Origin: a virus | Lineage: Duplodnaviria; Caudoviricetes | DNA length: 64,000 nt | IMG/VR virus record: IMGVR_UViG_3300033066_002255 | Direction: 5' to 3' (one strand) | In this document: positions 1 through 12,202 of the stretch, in pieces | Layout: every line of letters begins with the position of its first letter | How positions within the stretch are numbered: the stretch's first letter is position 1 | Translations under genes and position numbers: made by a program | The notes under the pieces: model-generated | What the model was told of the DNA's origin: nothing | The model's database searches: none | Seen by the model: only the letters and a program-made list of their open reading frames with translations

Positions 1-479
1 TCTAATAGTTCGACAGGTTTAAACATTGCGATAGGTTTTGGAATTTCTGTAAACATATCTTTGACTATTACTTTAATTCCTTTTCCCATATCGCCAAATA
101 GTCCATATACTTTCCAATTGCATACTTCTTTCCCTTTTTTATCAATCATTTTGCCTGAATTGCATTCTTGATAATCTGTTGAAATTCCACCACAGCAAGG
201 GCATTGATATTGTTTACTTGGGAACTTTGCTTTCACATCTTCAATCGTATCAAAAACATACACTTCTGATAAATCAGGAAAGTTGGCATTTTGAAAATAA
301 TTTGTGTAATTACAGTTTCTTGATTTTGCAAATAGTTCCAAAGTTTCAAGTTCAGTTTTGCCCATAACTTTGGCATACTGTGGCACTTTTTCACAAAGGA
401 AATTTACCTTTTCAACTACCCTTTGCAACCCAGTTTCACCAGGCCATCCATTGTATATTTCAACAATGATTTTATTCAT
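1..479 (-). CDS. Cassette gene, hypothetical protein with CPCC...C...C (possible Zn-binding); 3' end outside window
   Basis: My translation from ATG 479: MNKIIVEIYNGWPGETGLQ...YQCPCCGGISTDYQECNSG...VCNWKVYGLFG..., open to the edge. Absent from the ORF track because it has no stop. Confidence 0.75.
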   Translation of the reverse strand, partial: MNKIIVEIYNGWPGETGLQRVVEKVNFLCEKVPQYAKVMGKTELETLELFAKSRNCNYTNYFQNANFPDLSEVYVFDTIEDVKAKFPSKQYQCPCCGGISTDYQECNSGKMIDKKGKEVCNWKVYGLFGDMGKGIKVIVKDMFTEIPKPIAMFKPVELL

Positions 480-501
480 AATGTCCGACTGCAAAAGGGC
501 A

Positions 502-638
502 GCAGGTAACACTGTATTGCCAAAAGGCAGGGCTGACGTAAGTTCATCAGCATTTGTAATTCTATTGTTCATTTGTATTTATTTTGAAGTTTTGTAATTC
601 TAATCCCTGCCCTTCGGCAATACTTTTTCGTTATGTGC
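502..638 (+). repeat. attC-like site A
   Basis: gcaggtAAC-act-GTATTGCCAAAAGGCAGGG...CCCTGCCCTTCGGCAATAC-tttttc-GTTatgtgc; 17/19 stem. Confidence 0.85.
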
Positions 639-642
639 AAGG

Positions 643-855
643 CTACTTGACTGCTCCGAAATCAAAATGCGGAAGAATACGAAATTCACATTCATTTAGT
701 CTGTAAATGGTATTTAGTTCTGCATCTTTTCTTTGGTCTGCGAATTGTTCAATAACCGCCAATTGGTCTTGTGTAATAATTAAAGTCTGTTTTGGTTTCT
801 TTGAGTTTGTTGTTAAGTCAAAGATTTCGCCAATGTGAATTTCGTATTTGTTCAT
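643..855 (-). CDS. Cassette gene, hypothetical 70 aa
   Basis: Fills cassette 631-980; TAG stop abuts the R box. Confidence 0.75.
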   Translation of the reverse strand: MNKYEIHIGEIFDLTTNSKKPKQTLIITQDQLAVIEQFADQRKDAELNTIYRLNECEFRILPHFDFGAVK

Positions 856-891
856 CTTTTTAAATTAAATTTAGTGCTGATAAACCGCCCA

Positions 892-988
892 GCACATAAC
901 AGCGGTTTGGCAAAAGCTGCCATTGAAATTTGTGCGAAAATTGAGCATCCGTTAGGCAGCCTTCGCCAAGCCCGAAAACGTTATGTAC
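892..988 (+). repeat. attC-like site B
   Basis: gcacatAAC-agc-GGTTTGGCAAAAGCTGCC...GGCAGCCTTCGCCAAGCC-cgaaaac-GTTatgtac. Confidence 0.85.
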
Positions 989-1049
989 AAGTGCTATTTT
1001 AGTACTTATAATTGAGTTCAGCGGTTAAAACAAAAAGAATTTTCCCAAC

Positions 1050-1751
1050 TCACTTATTTTTTGATGATTTAATTATATCTAATATTTCACTCCACTCAGT
1101 GTTATTAATAGGTATGGTTGTCAAACTTTGATATGTGTCTATATTACAATATGTTTCTAATTCAGATAAATCAGAATCATACATAATATATTCATTACCA
1201 ATTTCATAATCTTCAATAACATCATTTTTACTATGAAATCCCATCACATCCCAATATAAATTATCATTTAATTTTATATAAACGTGTATAACTTCTTGGT
1301 CTTCCTCGGAAAAAATATAGGTAAATTTGTTATAACCTAATTTAGAAACCTCTTTCGCAAATTTAAAACAACTTCCTCTATTAATATCTTGAAAATTTAT
1401 GGTTTTTAGATTTCTAATATTCAACGCTATATAACTAAGGTCTTTATATTTTTCATTTTGTGTCTTCTTAGTAATAAATTTATTCTTTTTTTGATTATAC
1501 CATTGCTGTGCTGAATTTAGTGAATCAAATTTGTAATATTTACCATCAAGAACTTGAACACCATAACCACCTCTATTTTTACCGTTTTCATCATATAAAT
1601 ACTTATTCAGTTCTTCAGTATCATTGTTAGGTATGTTATATGCTATAATTTTCCCATCATTATCAAAAACATATAAAAAAATATCATTTTGAATATTTTC
1701 ATTCAAATATTCTCTTATGGTGGTTGCTATAAACTTTCTCAAATTTTTCAT
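1050..1751 (-). CDS. Cassette gene, 233 aa phage-type protein with N-terminal LRKFIATTIREYLNE motif
   Basis: Fills cassette 981-1983; TATTTATA motif upstream at 1766-1773 (-). Confidence 0.8.
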   Translation of the reverse strand: MKNLRKFIATTIREYLNENIQNDIFLYVFDNDGKIIAYNIPNNDTEELNKYLYDENGKNRGGYGVQVLDGKYYKFDSLNSAQQWYNQKKNKFITKKTQNEKYKDLSYIALNIRNLKTINFQDINRGSCFKFAKEVSKLGYNKFTYIFSEEDQEVIHVYIKLNDNLYWDVMGFHSKNDVIEDYEIGNEYIMYDSDLSELETYCNIDTYQSLTTIPINNTEWSEILDIIKSSKNK

Positions 1752-1857
1752 CGTTTTCTTTTATATATAAATATTTAAATTTAAAATTTCCACCCTAAAA
1801 TTATTTTTGTTTTTGTCTGTGGTTCTAATCAAGTTTTATCTGAACTTCACCGCACCT

Positions 1858-1991
1858 GTACATAACAAAGTGTATATGTAATGGTGGGTTTATCTCTAAT
1901 CCAAACATTAGTGGTTTCTATAAAGTTGTGTGGTTAATTGAAGTTTATCTCTATTTATCCACCACTACATATACACCCGACCGTTATATGC
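1858..1991 (+). repeat. attC-like site C
   Basis: gtacatAAC-aaa-GTGTATATGTAATGGTGG...CCACCACTACATATACAC-ccgacc-GTTatatgc; 17/18 stem. Confidence 0.85.
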
Positions 1992-2149
1992 TACTTTAAA
2001 ACCGCTTCGTTGATAGCTCGTTCGCATATTTGCCGTATTGTATCTTTTCCTAATTTTTCGATTTGAGAAGTTAAAACATAGATTGTTAATTGCTGTTTTT
2101 TATCGGTGCAAGGTTTCCTCCCTGCACCGTTTCTTTTACCGCCTTTCAT
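1991..2149 (-). CDS. Cassette gene, 52 aa basic protein, probably DNA-binding (GGKRNGAGRKP N-terminus)
   Basis: MKGGKRNGAGRKPCTDKKQQLTIYVLTSQIEKLGKDTIRQICERAINEAVLK*. ATG overlaps the upstream TAA (TAATG) and TAG abuts the R box. Below the ORF-track size cut-off. Confidence 0.75.
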   Translation of the reverse strand: MKGGKRNGAGRKPCTDKKQQLTIYVLTSQIEKLGKDTIRQICERAINEAVLK

Positions 2150-2361
2150 TACTTAATAATTATTGCGTGTCTTTTACCCGTTTCTTTGTCGCTAATCCAA
2201 ATGTGTGAGCCACTTACCCCAACGATTATATTATCGTCTGTGTTTACATCTAAGCATCTTACAAATGATTCAATGTCGCTTGTTTCTAATGCTTCGTTGT
2301 AAGCGTTTTCAATTTGTAATTTTAACGCTTCGTTTTTTGTTTCTACTGTTAATTTTAACAT
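2149..2361 (-). CDS. Cassette gene, hypothetical 70 aa
   Basis: In cassette 1984-2595; promoter-like TATCTTCG at 2395-2402 (-); coupled to 1991-2149. Confidence 0.75.
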   Translation of the reverse strand: MLKLTVETKNEALKLQIENAYNEALETSDIESFVRCLDVNTDDNIIVGVSGSHIWISDKETGKRHAIIIK

Positions 2362-2469
2362 GGCCTATCGTTTTTAATTGTTATTAATCTGATACGAAGA
2401 TAAACCTTTATTTTGAATAAACAATAGTTAAAATCAATTATTTTTCAAAAAAATGAAAATAAAAAAGCA

Positions 2470-2603
2470 GCATATAACACGCAATATAGCAAATGGCTGG
2501 TTCTGTGTTTATTCAAAGTTTTTGCTTCGCATTAACGGTGGTGTAACTTGATAGGTTCGTAGCCCGCAATCAGCCACTTGCCATATTGCCAAACGTTACC
2601 TGC
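2470..2603 (+). repeat. attC-like site D
   Basis: gcatatAAC-ac-GCAATATAGCAAATGGCTG...CAGCCACTTGCCATATTGC-caaac-GTTacctgc; 17/19 stem. Confidence 0.85.
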
Positions 2604-2608
2604 AAGTG

Positions 2609-3439
2609 CTACATTTCGTTTCCAAAGAGAGTTCCTGCTTGTAAATCTTTTTCTTTTCTTTTTTCTTCCCACGCTTTTTTAATACGTTCTTCAATAATAT
2701 TACAGTATTCAGAAGATATTTCGCTTCCAATCCAATTACGATTATTTAAAATACTCATTTTAGCTACCGTTCCGCTTCCCATAAAGCAGTCGTAAACCAA
2801 GTCATTTTCATTGCTCCACGTTGTTATGTGGTCATTTGCTAATGCTTCTGGAAATGGTGCAGGATGTCCTGTTTTTTCACGACCAAGCGTATAAGCAAAA
2901 ATATTCGGTGCAATCTTGTTTTCTTTGGTTGCCTTAAATTCGGTTTCATCATACAATCTCATAGCGTGTTTTGAACCGTGATTTTGTCTGCGTTCTAATC
3001 CGTATTTTTCAACCTTTCCAGCTTGTTTACAAGGTATCATTATTGGATTAAATGTTTTCGGCTTTCCTTTGCTCAAAATAAACATATACTCAAATGATTG
3101 CTCATATCGGTTATGTGTCAATGGCACATAGTTTATTTTTTGGTAAATCATTGTGTCGTGCAAATTAAACCCTATCTCTTTAAAAAATAATGCTTGTTTA
3201 AATGATGTTCCGCTTTCACTTCCATTCATTGTTGCATCGCCTACAATCCAAACAACTACACCGCCTTGTTTAGTAATTCTAAATAACTCTTCGGCAATTT
3301 CTTCAAATGCAAATGAATAACCATTATATTCTCGTAAGTTATCATAAGGTGGCGAAGTAACTGTTAAATCAATGAAATTATCAGGCATTTTAGCCATTGT
3401 ATCAAGGCAATTTTCGTTATATATTTTATTTATTTCCAT
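2609..3439 (-). CDS. Cassette gene, beta-class N4-C/N6-A DNA methyltransferase
   Basis: TSPPY (motif IV) precedes HPAPFP and DCFMGSGT (motif I). Confidence 0.92.
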   Translation of the reverse strand: MEINKIYNENCLDTMAKMPDNFIDLTVTSPPYDNLREYNGYSFAFEEIAEELFRITKQGGVVVWIVGDATMNGSESGTSFKQALFFKEIGFNLHDTMIYQKINYVPLTHNRYEQSFEYMFILSKGKPKTFNPIMIPCKQAGKVEKYGLERRQNHGSKHAMRLYDETEFKATKENKIAPNIFAYTLGREKTGHPAPFPEALANDHITTWSNENDLVYDCFMGSGTVAKMSILNNRNWIGSEISSEYCNIIEERIKKAWEEKRKEKDLQAGTLFGNEM

Positions 3440-3506
3440 CCCTTCTTTTTTTAAATTCTTTTCTTTAGTGCTTCGATTTGAGTTTAGTGGTTAATTAACC
3501 GAGCCA

Positions 3507-3580
3507 GCCAGTAACACGTGCTATAAGCAAGTTTGCCGCAGGCGCAACACAAACCTGCTCATAGCACGTGTAAGTTTAAA
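3507..3580 (+). repeat. attC-like site E (terminal; its R' box continues into guaC sequence)
   Basis: gccagtAAC-ACGTGCTATAAGCAAGTTTG...CAAACCTGCTCATAGCACGT-gtaa-GTTtaaa; 18/20 stem. Confidence 0.75.
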
Positions 3581-4411
3581 TCCTTTTTTGTGAAGCCAAG
3601 CAGCAAATTTTGATTTTGGATTTATCTTGATATATTTAAATAATCTTGTTTCTCCGCAAGATTCAAGGCTTTTATTAAGCATAGAACCTACCATAACATA
3701 ATCTGCACCAAGAGCAATTGCTTTTATTATATCTGAATAGTTTTTCATTCCTCCATCTGCAATAATAAGTGGCTTATTATCTTGAAGTATTAATGACTTA
3801 TGATAACAATCTCGTATTAAAGATGCCATAGGATATCCCACACCTGTTTGTTGTGTAGTAAGACAACCATTTCCATTGCCTATCCCAACTCTAACAGCAT
3901 CCACTCCAGCCTTCGCTAATTCAACATATGTATTTGGATGCGCTACATTTCCTGCCATTATAAAAAGCTTATCACCATATTTATTTTTTGCCTCTTTTAT
4001 AGCTGTAGTCATCTTATGCATATGACCATTAGCCATATCAATAAGAACATAATCTCTATTTTTCGGTGGAGCAATCCCTTCTCGTGTACTTATACCAGGA
4101 GAAAAGAAAACTGTTCCATCTATATAGGTCTTAATAAATTCATCAAGAGATAATGAAGAGAAGGTCTTAAATGCACCTGAACGAACATAATATGATGCTC
4201 TTGGAAAACAAATATTTATTTTGTTATTCCAAAAATCTTTCATATTGTAAGGGTCTACAACAGTATCCATTGGTGCTGTAAATATTGGTAACATACCATT
4301 TTCATCAAAAGGATTAACCTGTGTACGTGAACTAATTTGTGTTTGTACTGCTGGCTGTATTAATATATCATTAAAATCAAATTTTGTTATTTTCTCTTTA
4401 TCGAATCCCAT
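3521..4411 (-). pseudogene. guaC: GMP reductase/IMPDH-family protein, C-terminally truncated by the cassette array
   Basis: APMDTV, AGNV, RVGIGNGNGCLT, IIADGG and GADYVMVGS are present. The expected (F/Y)RGMS flap and final helix are missing, and the last ~17 aa are read from attC site E. Confidence 0.8.
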
Positions 4412-4617
4412 CTTTTTATGCTATCTAGTTTATGATTAATAATATCTGAGGCATCTTTAACGCCTTTCAAATAAATCTCTTTTTTTTCTAATTCTTTTAG
4501 TTTTTCATCTTCTGTATCTATATAATAAAAAAATACAGCTAATACTCCAGCTAAAATAAGAATAAATATTGTAATGCTTTTAAAGCAGCCCTCAATAGGG
4601 TCTGTTAAATCTCCCAT
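4387..4617 (-). CDS. Small membrane protein
   Basis: One hydrophobic helix; overlaps both neighbours. Confidence 0.65.
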   Translation of the reverse strand: MGDLTDPIEGCFKSITIFILILAGVLAVFFYYIDTEDEKLKELEKKEIYLKGVKDASDIINHKLDSIKRWDSIKRK

Positions 4618-4988
4618 AATTTAATTTGTTTTTTTGAAATTGGTCCTTTAGATTGTTCATATTGTTTCCAGTATTCGAGGAAGTGTTCAATTTGTTGTTT
4701 TAATTCAAGTGGTTTATCATTTATATATCTATGATATGAAGTTAAAATAAGAGAACTCATATCATCAGCATGCCATAATTGCATAGATGAAAGAAACTTA
4801 AAAATTGTACTATTACCTTCCCATAAACCCCAATTGCTTCTTATTTTTTTCCCTATTGTAAAATGTGTTGCAATAACAGCCTCCTCCTCTTGGGAGTTTT
4901 TAAAAAATTCATATTCTAAGGTTTTATGTTTAAAGTATTCATCTAATACATCAAAGCATTCACTTAAATTTGTTGGTGACATAATCAT
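4605..4988 (-). CDS. DUF6794-like hypothetical protein
   Basis: PTNLSEC...HFTIGKKIRSNWGLW...HADDMSSLIL pattern. Confidence 0.65.
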   Translation of the reverse strand: MIMSPTNLSECFDVLDEYFKHKTLEYEFFKNSQEEEAVIATHFTIGKKIRSNWGLWEGNSTIFKFLSSMQLWHADDMSSLILTSYHRYINDKPLELKQQIEHFLEYWKQYEQSKGPISKKQIKLWEI

Positions 4989-4993
4989 AATAG

Positions 4994-5001
4994 CAAATCT
5001 A
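4994..5001 (-). promoter_or_regulatory. Bacteroidota sigma-A-type -7 element TAGATTTG
   Basis: TAnnTTTG just upstream of a start codon; the same motif occurs at 7983(-), 15611(-), 18838(-), 20931(-) and 54014(+). Confidence 0.65.
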
Positions 5002-5060
5002 AATAATAATTTTTATTTTACAAAACAAATTACTATATTTAGTAAAATAAAGTTAATAAA

Positions 5061-5612
5061 ATGGCAGAAGAAAAAACTATAGAAGAACTTAAAGCTGAAA
5101 ATGAATTATTGAACAATCAAATTCAGGAGATAAATGAAAAGCTTAAAAATATTGGTGCTCTTATGATAAAAGCAAAAGAGTACAATGTTAAACTTGCTTA
5201 TTCTGTTAGATTATTAGCAGAATCTCATCTTACAAGAGATGAGAAATTAGCTATAGCACAAGAATTTGACAATGCTACTAGTGCAGAGCAGGTTGAAAGA
5301 ATATATCAAAAATATATGGACCAGATATGTCCTCCAGGGGTAGAAATAGAAAAAGATTTTATGTGGTCTCCAGGCTTCATCAGAGACTTAGAGAAGTATT
5401 ATTTTACCCATAAGGGATATAACCCTTTTGAGGTAATAGAAAGTGCCATGAAAGTCATTAGATTACAATTTAAATTAGAAGATGAATTAGGTATTGAAGG
5501 GAATCCAGAGAAAATAAAAAAATTAAAAGAGGCTTGGACTACAAATAAAACATCATCGTTAAAGGCTGTTGAGGATATTTTTTCAGTAACAAATGAAGTT
5601 TTAAAAAGATAA
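5061..5612 (+). CDS. Coiled-coil protein resembling a prohead scaffold domain
   Basis: Coiled coil followed by NVKLAYSVRLL...LTRDEKLAIAQEFDNA. Confidence 0.55.
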   Translation: MAEEKTIEELKAENELLNNQIQEINEKLKNIGALMIKAKEYNVKLAYSVRLLAESHLTRDEKLAIAQEFDNATSAEQVERIYQKYMDQICPPGVEIEKDFMWSPGFIRDLEKYYFTHKGYNPFEVIESAMKVIRLQFKLEDELGIEGNPEKIKKLKEAWTTNKTSSLKAVEDIFSVTNEVLKR

Positions 5613-10625: not shown

Positions 10626-11225
10626 TTACTTATATAAATTATATTCATCTATATATTTTCTAACTTGAGTAGGCATGAAATGAGTTGTGCTTTTATTATT
10701 TTTAATTTGATTTCTTAAAAAAGTTGAAGAAATCTCAAGAGAAGGTACTCCGTGCAAAAACTCAACTTTACCAATCATTTCATCTGGGATATAATTAGTT
10801 GTTGTATTTCTTGGATAGACAAGGAAATTTGTCAATTCAATTACCTCTTTTCCTCCGTGCCAATTTGGTATATCAACAAATACATCCGTACCACAAATTA
10901 AATAAAATTCAAACTCTGGATGCTTTTCTTTTAATTTTTCAAGTGTAAGATAAGTATAAGAAGGTCCTTCCATTCCAAACTCAGTTGTATCAACTGCCAT
11001 TCTTGAATTATATGATATTGCATTTAAAACCATTTGAAGTCTATGTTCAGCTGGAGCAAGTATTCCTAAACTCATTTTATATGGACTATTGGGAGAAATA
11101 ACAAACCATACCACATCTACAGCTCCAGAGTCTAAAGCCATTTCACCCATAGCTAAATGGCCTGTGTGAATTGGATTAAATGAGCCAAATAATAATCCTA
11201 TTTTAGGTTTTGAGTTATTGTCCAT
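10626..11225 (-). CDS. nadD: Nicotinate-nucleotide adenylyltransferase
   Basis: FGSFNPIHTGH, SYTYLTL, GTD..W, ISSTFLR. Confidence 0.93.
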   Translation of the reverse strand: MDNNSKPKIGLLFGSFNPIHTGHLAMGEMALDSGAVDVVWFVISPNSPYKMSLGILAPAEHRLQMVLNAISYNSRMAVDTTEFGMEGPSYTYLTLEKLKEKHPEFEFYLICGTDVFVDIPNWHGGKEVIELTNFLVYPRNTTTNYIPDEMIGKVEFLHGVPSLEISSTFLRNQIKNNKSTTHFMPTQVRKYIDEYNLYK

Positions 11226-11799
11226 TTTTCTTGATTAATGCTGATGCTATAATAGTTTTAGAATCTTTAATAACATTTGTTTTTACCTCATTAAGAAATT
11301 CATCTACATCCTTTTCAATAATATCAATATTTTCATGTTCACCTTGAACACCACCTCCAGCATTAGGGTCTTTATCGGAATTTTTAACAACTGCTAAAAA
11401 GATAAAAATCTTTTCTGTAGAATAACCTGGAGAAGCATATATTTCAAATGGCTTTGTTAAATGCTCTTCAGTTATAACATAACCAACTTCTTCGTGTAAT
11501 TCTCTAATTGCAGCGTGTTGAGGAGTTTCTCCATCATCTATTTTTCCTGCAACAACTTCTAAAATATCAACTGGATATTCTAAAGCTACTGGATATCTAA
11601 ATTGCCTTACTAATGTAATTTTTTGAGTATCCTCATTAAATACAAGTACTGCAACAGCATTTGGCCTAGATAATTTAGAACGATAATAAATAGATTCTGC
11701 GCCATCTTCGGCAGTTTCTTTTACTGTAAGTTGGTCTACTTTAAAGTAGCCATCAAATATTCTTTCTTCTTTTAGAAATTCTGTTTTTTTGTTTGACAT
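11215..11799 (-). CDS. nudF: Nudix hydrolase, ADP-ribose pyrophosphatase-like
   Basis: Nudix box GKIDDGETPQHAAIRELHEEVG; RQFRYP; SPG; GEHE.I. Confidence 0.85.
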   Translation of the reverse strand: MSNKKTEFLKEERIFDGYFKVDQLTVKETAEDGAESIYYRSKLSRPNAVAVLVFNEDTQKITLVRQFRYPVALEYPVDILEVVAGKIDDGETPQHAAIRELHEEVGYVITEEHLTKPFEIYASPGYSTEKIFIFLAVVKNSDKDPNAGGGVQGEHENIDIIEKDVDEFLNEVKTNVIKDSKTIIASALIKKNGQ

Positions 11800-11812
11800 G
11801 TTGTTCTTGTTT

Positions 11813-12202
11813 TTATTTTTTTAAATATTTTTGTCTAATTTCTAAATCAATTGGTCGAGGTTCATTTTCCATGGAAATTCTAACGAAAACAACTCTTACA
11901 CTGCATACTTCTAATTCTTTTTCTTTATAAACATCATATCTTCTAGCTGATAGTTTTAGAGTTATAGAAGTCGTTCCAATTGTTTCTACTTCTCCGTATA
12001 TAATTACATCGTGATTTTCTTTGACTGGTGTATGGAATTCAATTCCATCCATTTTTACAGTAACCATTTTCTTAGTCTTGCAAATTCTCGTTGCCATTAT
12101 AGCTCCAGCTTCATCAAGCCAAGATAACATTTTGCCTCCAAAAAGATTTCCATGAACTCCAAGGTCAGATGCCTTACAAAGATGTCGTGTTATTACTTCC
12201 AT
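11813..12202 (-). CDS. HotDog-fold acyl-CoA thioesterase (YciA-like)
   Basis: HGNLFGGKMLSWLDEAG, VTV..D.I.F..PV, G.TS; TAATG overlap with pncB. Confidence 0.88.
   Translation of the reverse strand: MEVITRHLCKASDLGVHGNLFGGKMLSWLDEAGAIMATRICKTKKMVTVKMDGIEFHTPVKENHDVIIYGEVETIGTTSITLKLSARRYDVYKEKELEVCSVRVVFVRISMENEPRPIDLEIRQKYLKK

Follow-up and report, generated by a model that had tools for sequence, protein, structure and literature searches.

A cassette array in a large phage ends at a truncated hairpin fused to the interior of a guaC-like gene

The window, a 64,000-nt stretch of DNA from a Caudoviricetes virus (record IMGVR_UViG_3300033066_002255), carries what looks like a recombination scar of recent date where a cassette array borne by the phage ends; arrays of this kind have already been described. 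In the reading that we favor, with a probability of roughly 0.6, a pre-formed cassette array was joined to the interior of a guaC-like gene of the IMPDH/GMP-reductase family by illegitimate, that is, non-site-specific, recombination. A first-pass annotation had proposed that a cassette-type array ends inside this gene. This held, as the orthologues run on past the joint and the terminal hairpin of the array, hairpin E, adjoins it. The relevant features of the window are as follows.

508-632, plus strand: hairpin A, attC-like (inverted-repeat, fold and site scans)
898-982, plus strand: hairpin B, attC-like (inverted-repeat, fold and site scans); left flank 88.6% identical to LR745206.1
1864-1985, plus strand: hairpin C, attC-like (inverted-repeat, fold and site scans)
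2476-2597, plus strand: hairpin D, attC-like (inverted-repeat, fold and site scans)
2609-3439, minus strand: N6/N4 DNA methyltransferase gene, the cassette beside guaC (Pfam PF01555, 5.5e-42)
3513-3567, plus strand: hairpin E, the terminal attC-like site, truncated at the base of its right stem and lacking its native spacer and native GTTA box
3521-3568, minus strand: 15 out-of-context codons and a stop (RAMSRFVLRLRQTCL*), read from hairpin E
3568, no strand: single G at the joint that fits neither side (C in native copies of hairpin E, T predicted by the orthologues)
3569-4411, minus strand: 5' part of the guaC-like gene, codons 1-281, ending ...WLHKKGFKLT (PF00478 and orthologue identity)
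3574-3583, plus strand: supposed R' box GTTTAAATCC, the antisense of the guaC codons GGA TTT AAA C

The joint lies at the base of the stem of hairpin E

The joint was placed with two independent rulers, the DNA of the closest relative of the gene and other copies of hairpin E. The closest relative at the DNA level is an ENA contig (L022, 88% protein identity), which also keeps the upstream DUF6794 and small membrane-protein genes. Its blastn alignment with the minus strand of the window runs to ...GGA TTT AAA CTT ACA and ends at base 3569, beyond which L022 reads AAA AGA TTT AGA GGT ATG TCA... and the window reads CGT GCT ATG AGC AGG. The Leu-Thr-Lys codons at this point are common to other orthologues. 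On the other side, hairpin-derived DNA ends at 3567, where four independent copies of hairpin E all stop aligning in blastn. These copies came from an exact-pattern scan of IMG/VR, which found the identical 53-nt core in four contigs (L278-L281). In 4/4 of them the native right stem, ...CATAGCAC, is followed by a spacer of 4-5 nt (CAAC, CATTC or CATAC) and then by GTTA. Since all four alignments stop at 3567 and guaC homology begins at 3569, the hairpin E of the window has lost its own spacer and R' box.

The sequence across the joint is CATAGCAC-G-TGTAAGTTTAAATCC (also given as CATAGCAC-G-TGTAAGTTT), and the overlap between guaC and hairpin E is 0-1 nt. The orthologues predict T at 3568 because their next codon, for Lys (AAA/AAG), begins with A on the opposite strand. 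The break is therefore 3567/G3568/3569, and not G3574^T3575. The latter position stems from the first-pass annotation, which had placed the R' box of site E at G^TTTAAATCC (3574) and had taken it for a GTT secondary site at which the array integrated. The uninterrupted orthologue L022 reads GGA TTT AAA CTG ACA AAA AGA TTT AGA GGT ATG at this place, and the supposed box is ordinary guaC sequence, 6 nt inside the gene. In integrons, the exchange falls between the G and the TT of the R' box (PMC9892861; bioRxiv 10.1101/2022.09.11.507474), so that the right joint of an inserted array keeps the spacer and the G of the last site. The window has neither, with guaC sequence standing where all four native copies have spacer and R' box, which argues against a crossover at the GTT. 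The opposite polarity of the sites would make the guaC side the non-crossover side, and the joint is thus non-canonical either way.

Gene order places the break at the same point. Two contigs whose guaC is 68-71% identical (L021 and L024) are collinear with the window from 13431 to 3566, and synteny stops at 3566-3570. The downstream genes of both contigs are absent from the window, and neither contig has a hairpin array at that place.

The guaC-like gene lacks its last ~80 codons

The ORF at 3521-4411(-) encodes 296 aa and matches the Pfam IMPDH family (PF00478, E = 2.7e-38), over profile positions 116-252 of 345 only. Its catalytic Cys loop (GIGxGxxC(T/L)T, GIGNGNGCLTTQQ in the window) and its phosphate-binding segments ADGGMKNY and GADYVMVGS are invariant with the orthologues; the flap and the RGMS/SEG/SAMSY segments, which a complete barrel has, are absent. 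The IMPDH/GMPR pattern reported by the first-pass annotation is therefore real, and only its end point at ...KKGFK needs to be moved, since the orthologues read GFKLT, homology extends to 3569 and is gone after LT, residue 281. The ORF then runs, as had been described, into hairpin E, adding 15 codons and a stop to end ...WLHKKGFKLTRAMSRFVLRLRQTCL*. At the same place, aligned orthologues read ...WLHK(K/R)GFKLTK(R/K/H)FRGMSTKEVQK.... The resemblance of 'RAMS' in the window tail to the orthologue 'RGMS' is due to chance, as these letters come from a hairpin arm that is identical in unrelated contexts.

None of the orthologues ends naturally at this point. The closest protein in a large collection (P0002) has 362 aa and is 85% identical over 95% of the query. 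Intact orthologues at 85-88% identity have 357-365 aa and match the window ORF through codon 281 only, and among the matches listed, those at 71-75% identity all have 357-371 aa. Intact relatives of 343-365 aa go on ...KRFRGMSTKEVQK...TSEG...SAMSY...RFNK. Relatives of 343-358 aa are found in huge uncultured phages (LR756500-4, LR745206), in Lak phages and in one crAss-like phage, and after GADYVMLGS...ESxG all of these phage relatives continue ...(F/Y)RGMSTKE(V/I)Q...TSEG...SAMSY...RFNK. About 80 codons are thus missing from the window gene (KRFRGMSTKEV...SEG...SAMSY...). P0002 aligns with solved IMPDH structures (4mz1) through residue 346, so that the missing ~80 residues correspond to the flap and the last barrel elements and not to an optional tail. 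That the family goes on after the break, with a flap first, had been anticipated correctly; the rest of the missing part is a C-terminal barrel segment. The truncated 281-codon product is presumably inactive.

The proteins are GMPR-like in that they have ~360 aa and no CBS insert, and the best sequence matches in the PDB are CBS-deleted IMPDHs first and GMPR2 next. As far as sequence can tell GMP reductase from IMP dehydrogenase, 'guaC' is only a label. Eight orthologues agree at 137 sites, and at these the retained 281 codons have a single private change, which is no more than intact genes have. The absence of decay in the remaining gene suggests that the truncation is recent.

With C-terminal parts from five relatives as queries, tblastn found no copy of the missing part within the 64 kb of the window. 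A 76-aa fragment on a 71-kb JGI contig (P0121) was considered as the missing 3' piece and is probably not it, since it shares 96% identity with the P0032 lineage but no more than 88% with the lineage nearest to the window. We consider it clearly likelier that the 3' piece was lost than that it waits at the other end of the array. A recombination-controlled switch, as had been suggested, needs the 3' half and two competent joints, and the right joint is competent in no known sense. With this non-canonical right joint, a precise excision that restores the reading frame is unlikely.

A guaC homologue is interrupted differently on two other contigs (L018 9983-12587, IMGVR_UViG_3300044712_000732, 501 kb; and L019), where it is broken at the catalytic Cys (GGGC/FVENTK...VHN/CLTSKN). 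The intein-like insert in the L018 homologue is itself split by a separate 341-aa ORF (10868-11893), and PF00478 occurs together with PF14890 (intein) on several database fragments. Hairpin sites scored beside this 'truncated' guaC in L018 and L019 were rejected as false positives in AT-rich DNA, the gene carrying an intein-like insert.

Hairpin E terminates an array of attC-like sites

Five sites of a single polarity lie within 3.6 kb (site E was scanned as 3513-3576) and none in the other 60 kb, against a background of about 4 hits per shuffled window for the looser site scan. A stricter scan, which needs the C and one extra R-box pair, detected sites A-D and missed E. As in attC sites, paired boxes R''(..AAC)/R'(GTT..) and L''/L' surround a variable loop, and the structure is kept while the sequence is diverse. 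Sites A-D are complete; site E retains only the left box and both stems. The GTTAxxxxx tail of each site is complementary to the xxxxxTAAC head of the next, which is the signature of circular cassettes. Complementarity is 9/9 from A to B (GTTATGTGC/GCACATAAC) and from B to C (GTTATGTAC/GTACATAAC), 9/9 as an exact complement from C to D (GTTATATGC/GCATATAAC), and 7/9 from D to E. This pattern fits either polarity, and the polarity was therefore taken from the array edges of LR745206.1 and P12002L and from a published assay.

The L box has no extrahelical bases in these hairpins, and their stems contain mismatches (A.C on the plus strand, G.T on the minus strand) and no bulges. Their asymmetry lies in the spacer lengths only, 3 nt versus 4-7 nt. 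The minus strand folds better in all five. For hairpin E (3514-3571), in which the arms of the inverted repeat (3514-3535/3550-3571) are 91% complementary, the DNA fold has -17.6 kcal/mol on the plus strand and -22.1 kcal/mol on the minus strand (z of -4 and -5). Rfam gave no match in window positions 1-5200. On the left, ORF 3-572(-) passes beyond the start of the window, and the array probably continues left of hairpin A, off the contig. One of the contigs with a native hairpin E (L279) matches the window over 228 nt at 93.9% identity, a stretch that takes in the left flank of the hairpin and the initial 100 nt of the methyltransferase gene. In L279, hairpin E is internal in a six-site array and has a normal end.

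Two further elements were seen among the cassettes. A perfect 17-nt inverted repeat (AATACGAAATTCACATT / AATGTGAATTTCGTATT, at 676-692 and 832-848), separate from the attC-like hairpins, lies near the ends of a 70-aa cassette ORF (643-855(-)). In addition, the leader between cassette gene start and hairpin at 838-904 is 88.6% identical to L020 12001-12070 (AAATTAAATTTAGTGCTGATAAACCGCCnAGCACATAAC). The two cassettes are unrelated and sit in two phages, with different genes and stems, and the leader may be a shared promoter or leader module.

The hairpin family has canonical array edges in other phages

More than 120 contigs carry the same hairpin family; most belong to Bacteroidota genomes, and some pack 12-13 sites into less than 6 kb. 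A metagenomic phage contig (L086) has it as well. Its layout is xTAAC, a 3-nt spacer, the stem, often with the loop CATTAAAACGA, a 4-7 nt spacer and GTTA. The longest ORF is antisense to site polarity in 37/44 inter-site intervals of phage and bacterial arrays. A set of 127 family sites (L150-L269, L020, L086, L149) was collected by loop motif, independently of their ends. In this set GTT is preceded by C in 66% of the sites and followed by A or G in 89% and by T in 5%; the window has A before and T after. In 81% of the 127 sites an A stands at a distance of 11 nt from the G of GTT, and the consensus is accordingly GTTRnnnGCAA(T/G). In the window this motif extends into the stop codon, TAG, of the upstream-reading cassette gene (GCAAGTGCTA). 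Dense family arrays or single sites also occur in two short contigs binned as Methanolobus sp. (L190, L232) and in contigs from Nanoarchaeota or CPR bins (L165, L178, L199, L201), all of which are probably mis-binned phage or Bacteroidota contigs.

A published 635-kb phage, LR745206.1, carries an array of four sites whose cassettes encode C5 and D12 DNA methyltransferases (L020 9886-12690). The left edge of this array, ...cataaG/TTACAGGTA, is complementary to TACCTGTAAC of the first site and forms a canonical G^TTA joint. This edge (G/TTACAGG) is 2 nt from the start codon of a helicase-like ORF. No close relative that would show the empty site was found in the phage collection. A search for tyrosine recombinases (PF00589) found none in the whole 635 kb of LR745206.1 and none among 20 window ORFs of 286-571 aa.

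The hairpin arrays of Polaribacter phage P12002L have been described as a CALIN, a cluster of attC sites with no integrase, whose cassettes carry methyltransferases (Qi et al. 2023, PMC9892861). Here, G/TTAGGCAC comes after an 80-nt boundary element and is complementary to GTGCCTAAC of the hairpin that follows, again a canonical G^TTA joint. The same ~80-nt element, ending ...TTTTATCCGTTG, stands before both P12002L arrays (L149 29170-29245 and 37195-37270), and it behaves like an attI-type boundary and not like a cassette site. With IntI1, P12002L_attC1 gave no verified recombinants in vitro and attC2 recombined (PMC9892861). The primers in the supplement of that study identify attC1 as an ordinary family member and attC2 as the 80-nt boundary element. 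Given the canonical G^TTA joints elsewhere in the family, in LR745206.1 and P12002L, the joint of the window is an exception.

A recombinase does lie beside a family array in a Flavobacteriaceae MAG (L272 1-2172 and L211; CAWBZU010000001.1, ~2,343,000-2,345,300), where a XerA/integron-integrase-like protein (L272 1162-2172) is encoded ~1 kb from the array. It scores 217.6 bits with NF040815 and 204 bits with TIGR02249, the latter in two pieces that skip model positions 184-239, and it lacks the IntI-specific insert. Between this recombinase and the array, a 339-aa ORF is enclosed by the arms GGATATAAC-AAG-TTGGCGAAA and TTTCGCCAA, which gives the impression of a gene inside a hairpin loop.

A probable illegitimate join and its alternatives

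Under the favored reading of an illegitimate join, the incoming array would have been of the Bacteroidota/phage CALIN type and have carried the DNA methyltransferase. The break would have fallen at the base of the stem of the last hairpin on one side and after guaC codon 281 on the other, removing the spacer and GTTA box of hairpin E. The last ~80 guaC codons, with the flap, the substrate-binding RGMS/SEG segments and the last barrel elements, would have been removed or displaced. Two routes could lead there. Either the array, or a larger piece with the array, was inserted or replaced the region through two joints, each of them illegitimate or homologous, or a deletion reached from an array just downstream into guaC. 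Breaks of this kind are known to cluster at hairpin stems. The guaC promoter may now drive transcription into the methyltransferase cassette. Two observations count against an illegitimate join. The GTT lies 6 nt from the break, near the 4-7 nt spacers of the family, for which the chance, estimated from base composition, is about 5%. Moreover, the break falls between stem and spacer, which is where cleavage by a tyrosine recombinase sitting on the inner arm would be expected; breakage stimulated by the hairpin is predicted at this position as well.

A Xer-like recombinase could have produced the joint by exchanging a strand at the border of inner arm and spacer, with guaC TGTAAG-GTTTAAA as a pseudo-core and the central region of the target inherited after replication. 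The 6 nt between the break (3567/3568) and the GTT (3574) equal the usual overlap length of tyrosine recombinases. The Flavobacteriaceae recombinase without the IntI-specific insert would be a suitable type of enzyme, and the hairpins lack the extrahelical bases on which the strand choice of IntI depends. However, the native spacer of hairpin E is 4-5 nt and not 6 nt, the other array edges of the family have G^TTA joints, a GTT within 5-7 nt is expected by chance in about 5% of cases, and such a reaction is undocumented. We therefore regard a Xer-like exchange as improbable. Its further-reaching form is less probable still: the joint would be the footprint of non-IntI Xer-like chemistry acting on bulge-free hairpins and on pseudo-sites in phage genes, and the array would be a reversible insertion under recombinase control that splits guaC, the 3' half of which would lie at the other end of the array.

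An assembly chimera at repeats common to co-occurring genomes would mean that the phage gene is really intact. The array is indeed rich in repeats: at least five contigs have the core of hairpin E and its flanks at 82-99% identity. The contig, recorded at 159,239 bp, also seems to stop within the array, and the cassette order left of E could be mis-joined. A false join, though, needs a shared k-mer, and as guaC and native hairpin E share 0-1 nt, there must be reads with the guaC/E sequence. The 296-aa chimeric ORF is, moreover, on record in identical form from two contigs. We thus hold out little prospect for a chimera and consider a pure assembly chimera at the joint unlikely, although the cassette order further left is not guaranteed.

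The weakest of these three alternatives is the one originally put forward, that an integron-type integrase inserted the array at an attG-like GTT in guaC, leaving the 3' half at the far end and a gene that precise excision restores. Cassette insertion by IntI1 at GWT sites outside att, and excision from them, are established (bioRxiv 10.1101/2022.09.11.507474), a GTT is near the joint, and tail/head complementarity is perfect across sites A-D; yet we find this account very improbable, because a crossover would have kept the spacer and the G of hairpin E, guaC homology with conserved Leu-Thr codons runs 6 nt past the GTT (a hairpin spacer would encode Leu-Thr by chance in ~0.6-0.9% of cases), GTTT with its preceding A is off-consensus, and an ordinary member of the family, P12002L_attC1, was not recombined by IntI1 (PMC9892861).

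Comparison with known systems and implications

Illegitimate-recombination joints build the mosaics of phage genomes, and palindromes and hairpins stimulate deletions. Like such mosaic joints, the joint of the window is novel, shows little homology or none, sits at the foot of a long hairpin stem and breaks a collinear gene order. It differs in that the incoming DNA is an integron-like cassette array and not a phage module. With the P12002L CALIN (PMC9892861) the array shares the hairpin family, orphan DNA methyltransferase cassettes including the N6_N4 type, genes antisense to site polarity, and the lack of an integrase, in the window as judged from 20 ORFs of 286-571 aa. The P12002L arrays, however, start at the conserved 80-nt boundary element with a clean G^TTA joint between genes, whereas the visible array end of the window is a truncated hairpin fused inside a metabolic gene. 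In attG insertion and imprecise excision (Loot et al., bioRxiv 10.1101/2022.09.11.507474), cassettes are likewise found outside att sites and inside genes, and excision at nearby sites can delete genomic DNA. At attG joints, in contrast, attC is preserved in full as far as the G of G^WT, and the joint of the window lacks the attC spacer and R' box. Classical attC sites (aadA7, Vibrio VCRs) resemble the family in their AAC...GTT boxes, in being imperfect palindromes of differing sequence and common geometry, and in the complementarity of each site tail to the next head that is expected from circular cassettes. Unlike them, the family has no extrahelical bases, has its asymmetry in spacer lengths and carries its genes on the opposite strand; one of its members failed with IntI1, and the neighboring bacterial recombinase is without the IntI-specific insert.

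The window thus offers a base-resolved example of the seat and the cost of an integron-like array in a large virulent phage. The cost is a conserved nucleotide-metabolism gene, presumably inactivated, and a methyltransferase cassette now stands behind the guaC promoter. A nearby GTT is no evidence of a secondary-site crossover, and comparing several copies of one hairpin settles the question. If the joint has been read correctly, arrays would spread in phages by ordinary illegitimate recombination too, besides integrase action. The wider context may merit more attention: a bulge-free hairpin family with genes on the 'wrong' strand, present in huge phages, in P12002L and in more than 120 Bacteroidota contigs.
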